From Escherichia coli (GTDB lineage Bacteria; Pseudomonadota; Gammaproteobacteria; Enterobacterales; Enterobacteriaceae): DNA of 64,000 nt. The notes beneath the pieces are model-generated. The model ran no database searches. It was given only the letters and a program-made list of their open reading frames with translations, and had not been told where the DNA came from. Positions 42,032 through 42,151 of this stretch are shown piece by piece. The stretch is taken from NCBI RefSeq assembly GCF_002854065.1, contig NZ_CP024147.1. One strand, 5' to 3'. How positions within the stretch are numbered: position 1 is the first letter of the stretch; each line of letters begins with the position of its first letter. Both the position numbers and the translations under genes were made by a program.

Positions 42032-42079
42032 GGCAACACCTGGTTAACAAGAATATGAAAAATCATAGCACTATTAATC

Positions 42080-42114
42080 TACTGGGGGGTAGTATCAGGT
42101 ACTGGGGGGGAGTA
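42080..42114. promoter_or_regulatory. Tandem RcnR operator sites (TACT-G6/7-N-AGTA) in the rcnR-rcnA intergenic region
   Basis: tactggggggtagta (42080..42094) and tactgggggggagta (42100..42114), the G-tract inverted repeats described for RcnR binding. Confidence 0.7.
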
Positions 42115-42151
42115 GAATCAGATTGCCGAATTAATACTAAGAATTATTATC

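Follow-up and report, generated by a model that had tools for sequence, protein, structure and literature searches.

The non-coding segment between rcnR and rcnA at positions 42032-42151 is almost certainly the known Ni/Co-responsive RcnR operator pair, shared by the back-to-back promoters of rcnR and rcnAB. All positions refer to the window, the whole stretch of 64,000 nucleotides of Escherichia coli DNA (contig NZ_CP024147.1) that was analysed. The operator pair is already described; it is a textbook regulatory element, real and functional. A sequence-only reading had claimed two near-identical G-tract sites, 5 bp apart, between divergent rcnR and rcnA genes; its coordinates were exact and every detail was confirmed. 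The segment corresponds precisely to the 120-bp non-coding gap between the start codon of rcnR, which ends at 42031 on the minus strand, and the ATG of rcnA at 42152. The sequence context is ...ATTAATC TACTGGGGGGTAGTA TCAGG TACTGGGGGGGAGTA GAATCAG..., and a repeat search recovered both sites as direct repeats of 15 nt with a period of 20 bp. When both strands of the 64 kb were searched with TACTGGGGGGNAGTA, allowing up to two mismatches, sites 1 and 2 were the only matches. About 0.11 matches would be expected by chance, and two or more were obtained in none of 100 shuffles. Only four G/C homopolymers of at least six bases are present in the whole window, and two of them are the operator tracts. 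An inverted repeat, I1 (42068-42083 and 42111-42126, 75% complementary), flanks the pair of sites, but its bases outside of TACT/AGTA are poorly conserved; I1 was regarded as fortuitous or as merely extending the half-sites. The coordinates of all features are listed in Table 1.

Table 1. Features of the rcnR-rcnA region and loci with a single operator
Feature	Position	Strand	Sequence or basis
rcnR, 90 aa, Ni(II)/Co(II)-sensing repressor of the CsoR/RcnR family	41759..42031	-	ORF, PF02583, NF011613
Candidate extended -10 of the rcnR promoter, TGCTATGAT	42062..42070	-	sequence and conservation
RcnR operator site 1 (rcnR-proximal), TACTGGGGGGTAGTA	42080-42094		TACT-GGGGGG-T-AGTA
Spacer TCAGG between sites 1 and 2	42095-42099		5 bp
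RcnR operator site 2 (rcnA-proximal), TACTGGGGGGGAGTA	42100-42114		TACT-GGGGGG-G-AGTA
Candidate -10 hexamer of the rcnA promoter, TAGAAT	42113..42118	+	conservation
rcnA, 274 aa, Ni/Co efflux permease with His-rich loop	42152..42976	+	ORF, PF03824, NF007454
rcnB, periplasmic accessory protein co-transcribed with rcnA	43198..43533	+	PF11776 RcnB, E=7e-19; RefSeq rcnB
Single-operator loci: Morganella (L079-L083), Edwardsiella anguillarum (L076), Erwinia psidii (L075), Enterobacter sp. CC120223-11 (L054)	upstream of rcnR		

The genes on both sides of the segment are those expected for an RcnR tandem operator, a CsoR/RcnR-family rcnR gene divergent from a NicO-family rcnA gene. The rcnR product matched Pfam PF02583 (E=3.5e-21) and the NCBIfam equivalog NF011613 (197 bits, cut-off 138), and the gene is annotated in RefSeq at the identical position (WP_000019944.1). 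His3, Cys35, His60 and His64 could all be read directly from the translation; by this H-C-H-H ligand set, RcnR as a Ni/Co sensor is told apart from FrmR and from the Cu sensor CsoR (PMC11672702). RcnA was identified by Pfam PF03824 NicO (E=5.3e-70) and by NCBIfam NF007454, nickel/cobalt efflux transporter (556 bits, cut-off 195). In every E. coli genome that was opened, the same genes are annotated by RefSeq at the same positions.

That the sites match the described RcnR operator architecture, as the sequence-only reading had also stated, was borne out by the published consensus, the flanking genes, identity with K-12 and conservation across species. The passages on the operator in PMC3902906, PMC7055735 and PMC7105576 give the consensus as TACT-G6-N-AGTA in two copies and credit it to Iwig & Chivers 2009 (J Mol Biol 393:514), with Blaha et al. 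2011 (Biochimie 93:434) named as a further source. Consensus and location of the operator are restated in PMC7055735 and PMC7105576. According to PMC3902906, the tandem operator consists of two type 1 sites bound with 1:1 stoichiometry per site, RcnR makes minor-groove contacts at TACT/AGTA, and the unbroken G tract has A-form character and is recognized by shape readout. For Salmonella, two RcnR tetramers per promoter DNA have been modelled (PMC5709419). Since the published notation is G6-N, the "G7" of site 2 is to be read as G6 followed by G at position N. The 120-bp segment is 100% identical to that of the K-12 derivative C600, 95 bp are 100% identical to K-12 DH10B, and of 5426 complete genomes of E. 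coli, 5361 contain the segment. Because it is identical to the K-12 derivatives used in published work, the published experiments apply directly; binding of apo-RcnR and its release by Ni(II) or Co(II) have been reported for the identical sequence, and stoichiometry and autoregulation are likewise described in the literature. Within the CsoR/RcnR family, it is the founding operator of the RcnR branch, and synthetic biology already employs it as a part inducible by cobalt or nickel (PMC7105576, PMC4124493). No new biology comes from confirming the operator itself. What the present check adds is a wide cross-species footprint with a site-specific N, a near-invariant gap of 5 bp and an indispensable site 2, together with counts of how often alleles of G-tract length and duplications of the operator unit occur in the E. 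coli population.

For the footprint, 80 species-level loci with an RcnR relative (76-100% protein identity) were collected, ranging from Escherichia to Morganella and including one Vibrio. They comprised 73 distinct intergenic regions, which were aligned and scored by mean identity to the window sequence. Site 1 reached a mean conservation of 0.94 and site 2 one of 0.997, compared to 0.40 in the spacer and 0.50-0.52 in the flanks. Two sites were detected in 69 of the 80 loci; the gap between them is 5 bp in 68 of these 69, and the distance from start to start is 20 bp in 67. Thus, the spacer is conserved in length and variable in sequence. Within the two-site loci, the core of site 1 is GGGGGGT in 59 of 69 and that of site 2 GGGGGGG in 65 of 69. 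Judged from these alignments, the consensus "N" (42090 and 42110) is site-specific and conserved across species: site 1 has a T here, site 2 a G. Both sites are under purifying selection relative to their flanks, and the conservation across species independently marks them as the functional core of the region.

Eight loci harbor one operator only, and it is always of the site 2 type, TACTGGGGGGGAGTA (Table 1). Since site 2 alone is retained in these species, it is the indispensable site, and their existence also indicates that regulation does not strictly depend on two sites in tandem. A degenerate remnant, GGGTAGT, is located in Morganella at the place of site 1.

The same data bear on the identity of the regulator. 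The sites could be the target of another paralogue of the CsoR/RcnR family, FrmR for example, and it is true that RcnR itself scores weakly on the FrmR model (76 bits, cut-off 133) and that operators with G/C tracts are common to members of the family (PMC10318464). They could also be a non-functional remnant of a duplication. To both proposals we assign practically no probability. The sites accompany an rcnR orthologue divergent from rcnA in 79 of 80 species loci and also on plasmids, the published binding data concern RcnR, and the cited literature reports an RcnR footprint as well as derepression of rcnA when rcnR, but not frmR, is deleted. A neutral remnant is ruled out by a conservation of 94-99.7% compared to about 50% in the flanks. 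A different kind of explanation is that the G runs adopt non-B DNA, a G-quadruplex or a slipped structure, and regulate independently of RcnR. One strand does carry G runs of six and seven bases in a stretch of 27 bp, and the tract is A-form-like in character (PMC3902906). However, with two runs only and a loop of 14 nt, at best a weak two-tetrad quadruplex could be formed, and the single-site species have just one G run. In addition, conserved TACT/AGTA half-sites and a fixed gap of 5 bp are needed if a protein binds, but not by a model based on structure only. Regulation by DNA structure is therefore very improbable.

Promoter elements for both genes were proposed from conservation in the 73 species sequences. 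On the minus strand, from 42070 to 42062, the positions TG-n-TAT-nn-T are conserved to 70-90% or more, compared to 20-50% for neighbouring bases, a pattern that we take as the signature of an extended -10 promoter. Transcription of rcnR would then start near 42055 on the minus strand, and an AGGTG Shine-Dalgarno sequence is located 6 nt 5' of its ATG. In the direction of rcnA, the hexamer TAGAAT is also conserved to 70-90% or more and is replaced in other species by TACAAT, TAAAAT, TATGAT or TATACT, all fitting TAnnnT. It overlaps site 2, the TA being common to the AGTA half-site. The putative start of rcnA would be near 42125 on the plus strand. Both predicted starts would thus flank the two sites, in agreement with PMC4124493, which places the pair of RcnR sites between the start sites of the two transcripts. 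TAGAAT was missed by a generic promoter scan because it lacks a good -35 hexamer. The generic sigma-70 scan offered two other candidates, both off the conserved blocks, which were rejected: with TTGCCG-16-TATTAT (42123-42150, plus strand) the start would fall at or after the rcnA ATG, and TTAACC-18-TACAAT (42047-42018, minus strand) is located within the rcnR coding sequence. An AT-rich stretch, AAGAATTATTATC, in front of the rcnA ATG has some likeness to a Fur box and prompted a search for GATAATGATAATCATTATC, but with up to three mismatches no match was obtained in the window. As the literature searched also contained no statement on Fur binding here, the idea was dropped.

Together with the published properties of RcnR, this geometry suggests how repression might operate. 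Without bound Ni(II) or Co(II), one RcnR tetramer occupies each TACT-G6-N-AGTA site, contacting the inverted half-sites TACT/AGTA and reading the shape of the G tract between them. The site centres are 20 bp apart, about two helical turns, which would place the two tetramers on the same side of the helix; such an arrangement would be consistent with the cooperative, wrapping behaviour that has been reported. Site 2 overlaps the putative -10 of PrcnA (TAGAAT), and site 1 would cover the spacer and the -35 position of the presumed rcnR promoter as well as the -35 region of PrcnA. Since the sites would cover promoter elements of both genes, bound repressor should block RNA polymerase in both directions, as far as this predicted occlusion geometry holds. 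Binding of Ni(II) or Co(II) at His3, Cys35, His60 and His64 lowers the affinity for DNA and thereby releases transcription of rcnAB and rcnR.

The sequence-only reading had further proposed that the G tracts are potential hot spots of slipped-strand mutation and that their lengths should be compared across strains. Queries of 94-96 bases were matched to the 5426 complete E. coli genomes, the band of at least 99% identity being taken as exact identity. The wild type, G6/G7, was present in 3736 genomes on the exact 95-bp background of the window. On the identical 95-bp background, one additional G at site 2 was detected in 95 genomes and one G less in 106, while the corresponding numbers for site 1 were 26 and 24. 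In total, 251 of 3987 genomes (6.3%) carry a variant of plus or minus one G, a count that may include homopolymer errors, to which the long-read-only assemblies representing many of the variant genomes are prone. The length differences are placed within the G tract by the alignments, and the longer tract, that of site 2, varies approximately four times more often than that of site 1. As a control, a C6 run in the btsS coding sequence (52517-52522) was searched in the same way and yielded neither a +1 nor a -1 variant in addition to 569 exact wild-type genomes; about 7.5 variants would have been expected at the rate of site 1, and the control is small, restricted to a single haplotype and C6 rather than G7. 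Its power is limited because just 569 genomes carry the 95-bp haplotype of the window (52472-52566). This btsS haplotype is a minority allele: of 5420 E. coli genomes, 569 match it exactly, O157:H7 PV15-279 among them. The G-tract variants are grouped by lineage, and this holds over several laboratories, with the additional G at site 2 (G8) in O121/O121:H19 and the loss of one G at site 2 in O111/O111:H8, which argues that at least some of them are real and inherited. Among about 78 species representatives, variants of plus or minus one were detected in five. In one of the E. coli variant genomes, PE15, the rcnA annotation is also frameshifted.

These numbers could be taken to mean that the G tracts constitute a contingency switch, at which slipped-strand mispairing heritably flips or tunes Ni/Co efflux on top of control by RcnR. 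Tract length is indeed polymorphic on an identical background, the longer tract is the more variable one as slippage predicts, the control run was invariant, variants are grouped by lineage in several laboratories and recur in other species, and the tract of site 2 lies within the putative PrcnA spacer. In known phase-variable loci, tracts usually consist of 8-9 or more units. The rcn tracts, with 6 and 7 G, fall short of the length at which high-frequency reversible switching occurs, and the lengths are the same in about 94% of E. coli genomes and in almost every other species, which points to purifying selection and not to switching. Moreover, the reliance of many variants on long-read-only assemblies, the frameshifted rcnA annotation of PE15, and a control of 569 genomes with one haplotype and a C6 run weaken the case for it. 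A phase-variable switch is therefore unlikely. The proposal of slippage hot spots was upheld in so far as 251 variants among 3987 genomes compare to none in the C6 control, but classical phase variation would need longer tracts. The tracts are best described as a modest hot spot of slippage that selection keeps in check, and not as a switch. Given the presumed position of the site 2 tract inside the PrcnA spacer, a gain or loss of one G at site 2 would be predicted to alter both the spacing of the half-sites and that of the promoter.

The intergenic haplotype of the window is the majority haplotype in E. coli; O157:H7 FRIK804, the only O157:H7 strain aligned, differs by a T-to-C exchange at 42054. 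Larger rearrangements of the region were encountered in a few strains. In E. coli WW2 (locus L001, 401-543), 23 bp with the site 2 unit are duplicated in tandem, and in E. coli O111:H8 8E (L089, 180-335), 20 bp with the site 1 unit are duplicated, so that three RcnR sites are present in either strain. In E. coli ETEC4085 (L004, approximately 512-540; about 42143 of the window), an IS5-family element is inserted approximately 9 bp before the rcnA ATG, between the putative promoter and the gene. Escherichia whittamii Sa2BVA5 (L011, approximately 1345-1466) has lost 150 bp between the imperfect 17-nt direct repeats CATGGCAACACCTGGTT and CAAGGAAACGCCTGGTT, which correspond to 42029-42045 and 42179-42195 of the window. 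With this deletion, the whole rcnR-rcnA promoter-operator region and the first codons of rcnA are gone. It is conceivable, though rather doubtful, that the alleles with plus or minus one G, apparently fixed in lineages such as O121:H19 and O111, and the rare three-site duplications are genuine regulatory variants with different set-points of Ni/Co efflux. If true, a repressor operator would double as a slippage-prone knob for evolutionary tuning, and variants in length and copy number are the candidates for altered metal-efflux set-points.

Several other elements were recognized in the window. Upstream of thiM (40748-41536) and thiD (39951-40751), a TPP riboswitch (Rfam RF00059, 71 bits) is located at 41571-41667 on the minus strand. 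A plus-strand ORF of 68 aa adjoining rcnR (41567-41773) has no Pfam match and overlaps this riboswitch on the opposite strand; it is probably spurious. Further Rfam models above the gathering score were a Sib antitoxin RNA (10066-10212, plus strand, 150 bits), the CyaR/RyeE sRNA (24311-24396, plus strand, 101 bits) and a Peptidase-S11 cis-regulatory RNA (63100-63180, minus strand, 73 bits). Two IS1 copies in direct orientation are present at approximately 43749-44516 and 48005-48772, with apbC/mrp (44673-45812, minus strand) and metG (45905-47947, plus strand) between them. The yeh fimbrial block, which normally follows rcnB, is largely missing. The junction of rcnB and IS1 was found in one piece in two of the best 10 E. 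coli complete genomes listed, strains 100416 and CUWW06.

Among known systems, the tandem type 1 operator of RcnR in K-12 is the closest: it is identical over 120 bp, with the same genes, orientation, sites and gap of 5 bp. The element itself is no different from that of K-12, but its surroundings are unlike those in most E. coli, with IS1 after rcnB and most of the yeh block absent. The rcnR-rcnA genes of IncHI2 plasmids, known next to mcr-9 from the Enterobacter and Salmonella literature, have the same divergent layout and the same order of TACTGGGGGGTAGTA, 5 bp and TACTGGGGGGGAGTA. In contrast, flanks and coding sequences share only about 75% identity, TATTT takes the place of TCAGG as the spacer, and the plasmid-encoded RcnA has a longer His-rich loop and 370 aa compared to 274 aa here. 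On the Enterobacter hormaechei IncHI2A plasmid pFJMB80182_1 (L090, 1497-3709), IS1 is located directly 3' of rcnR-rcnA, echoing the IS1 of the window.

In Neisseria and Haemophilus, poly-G or poly-C tracts in the spacers between -35 and -10 of surface-protein genes create phase-variable promoters. The rcn region resembles them in that a G tract lies in a putative promoter spacer and varies by plus or minus one among strains. It differs in that the tract comprises 6-7 bases, has one length in about 94% of strains and in most species, and is primarily part of a repressor binding site. To our knowledge, no on/off phenotype is associated with the rcn tract.

CsoR type 2 operators, as in Streptomyces lividans and M. 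tuberculosis, are GTA-flanked pseudopalindromes with two short G/C tracts. They share with the RcnR sites the repressor fold family, AT-rich GTA/TAC inverted half-sites around G/C tracts, A-form-like DNA, overlap with the promoter and derepression by metal (PMC3902906, PMC10318464). In type 2 operators, the G/C tracts are interrupted, the half-sites are about 11 bp apart, and two tetramers bind per site (PMC3902906), whereas each type 1 site of RcnR described here has a single continuous G tract and half-sites 7 bp apart and is bound by one tetramer, two such sites being arranged in tandem.
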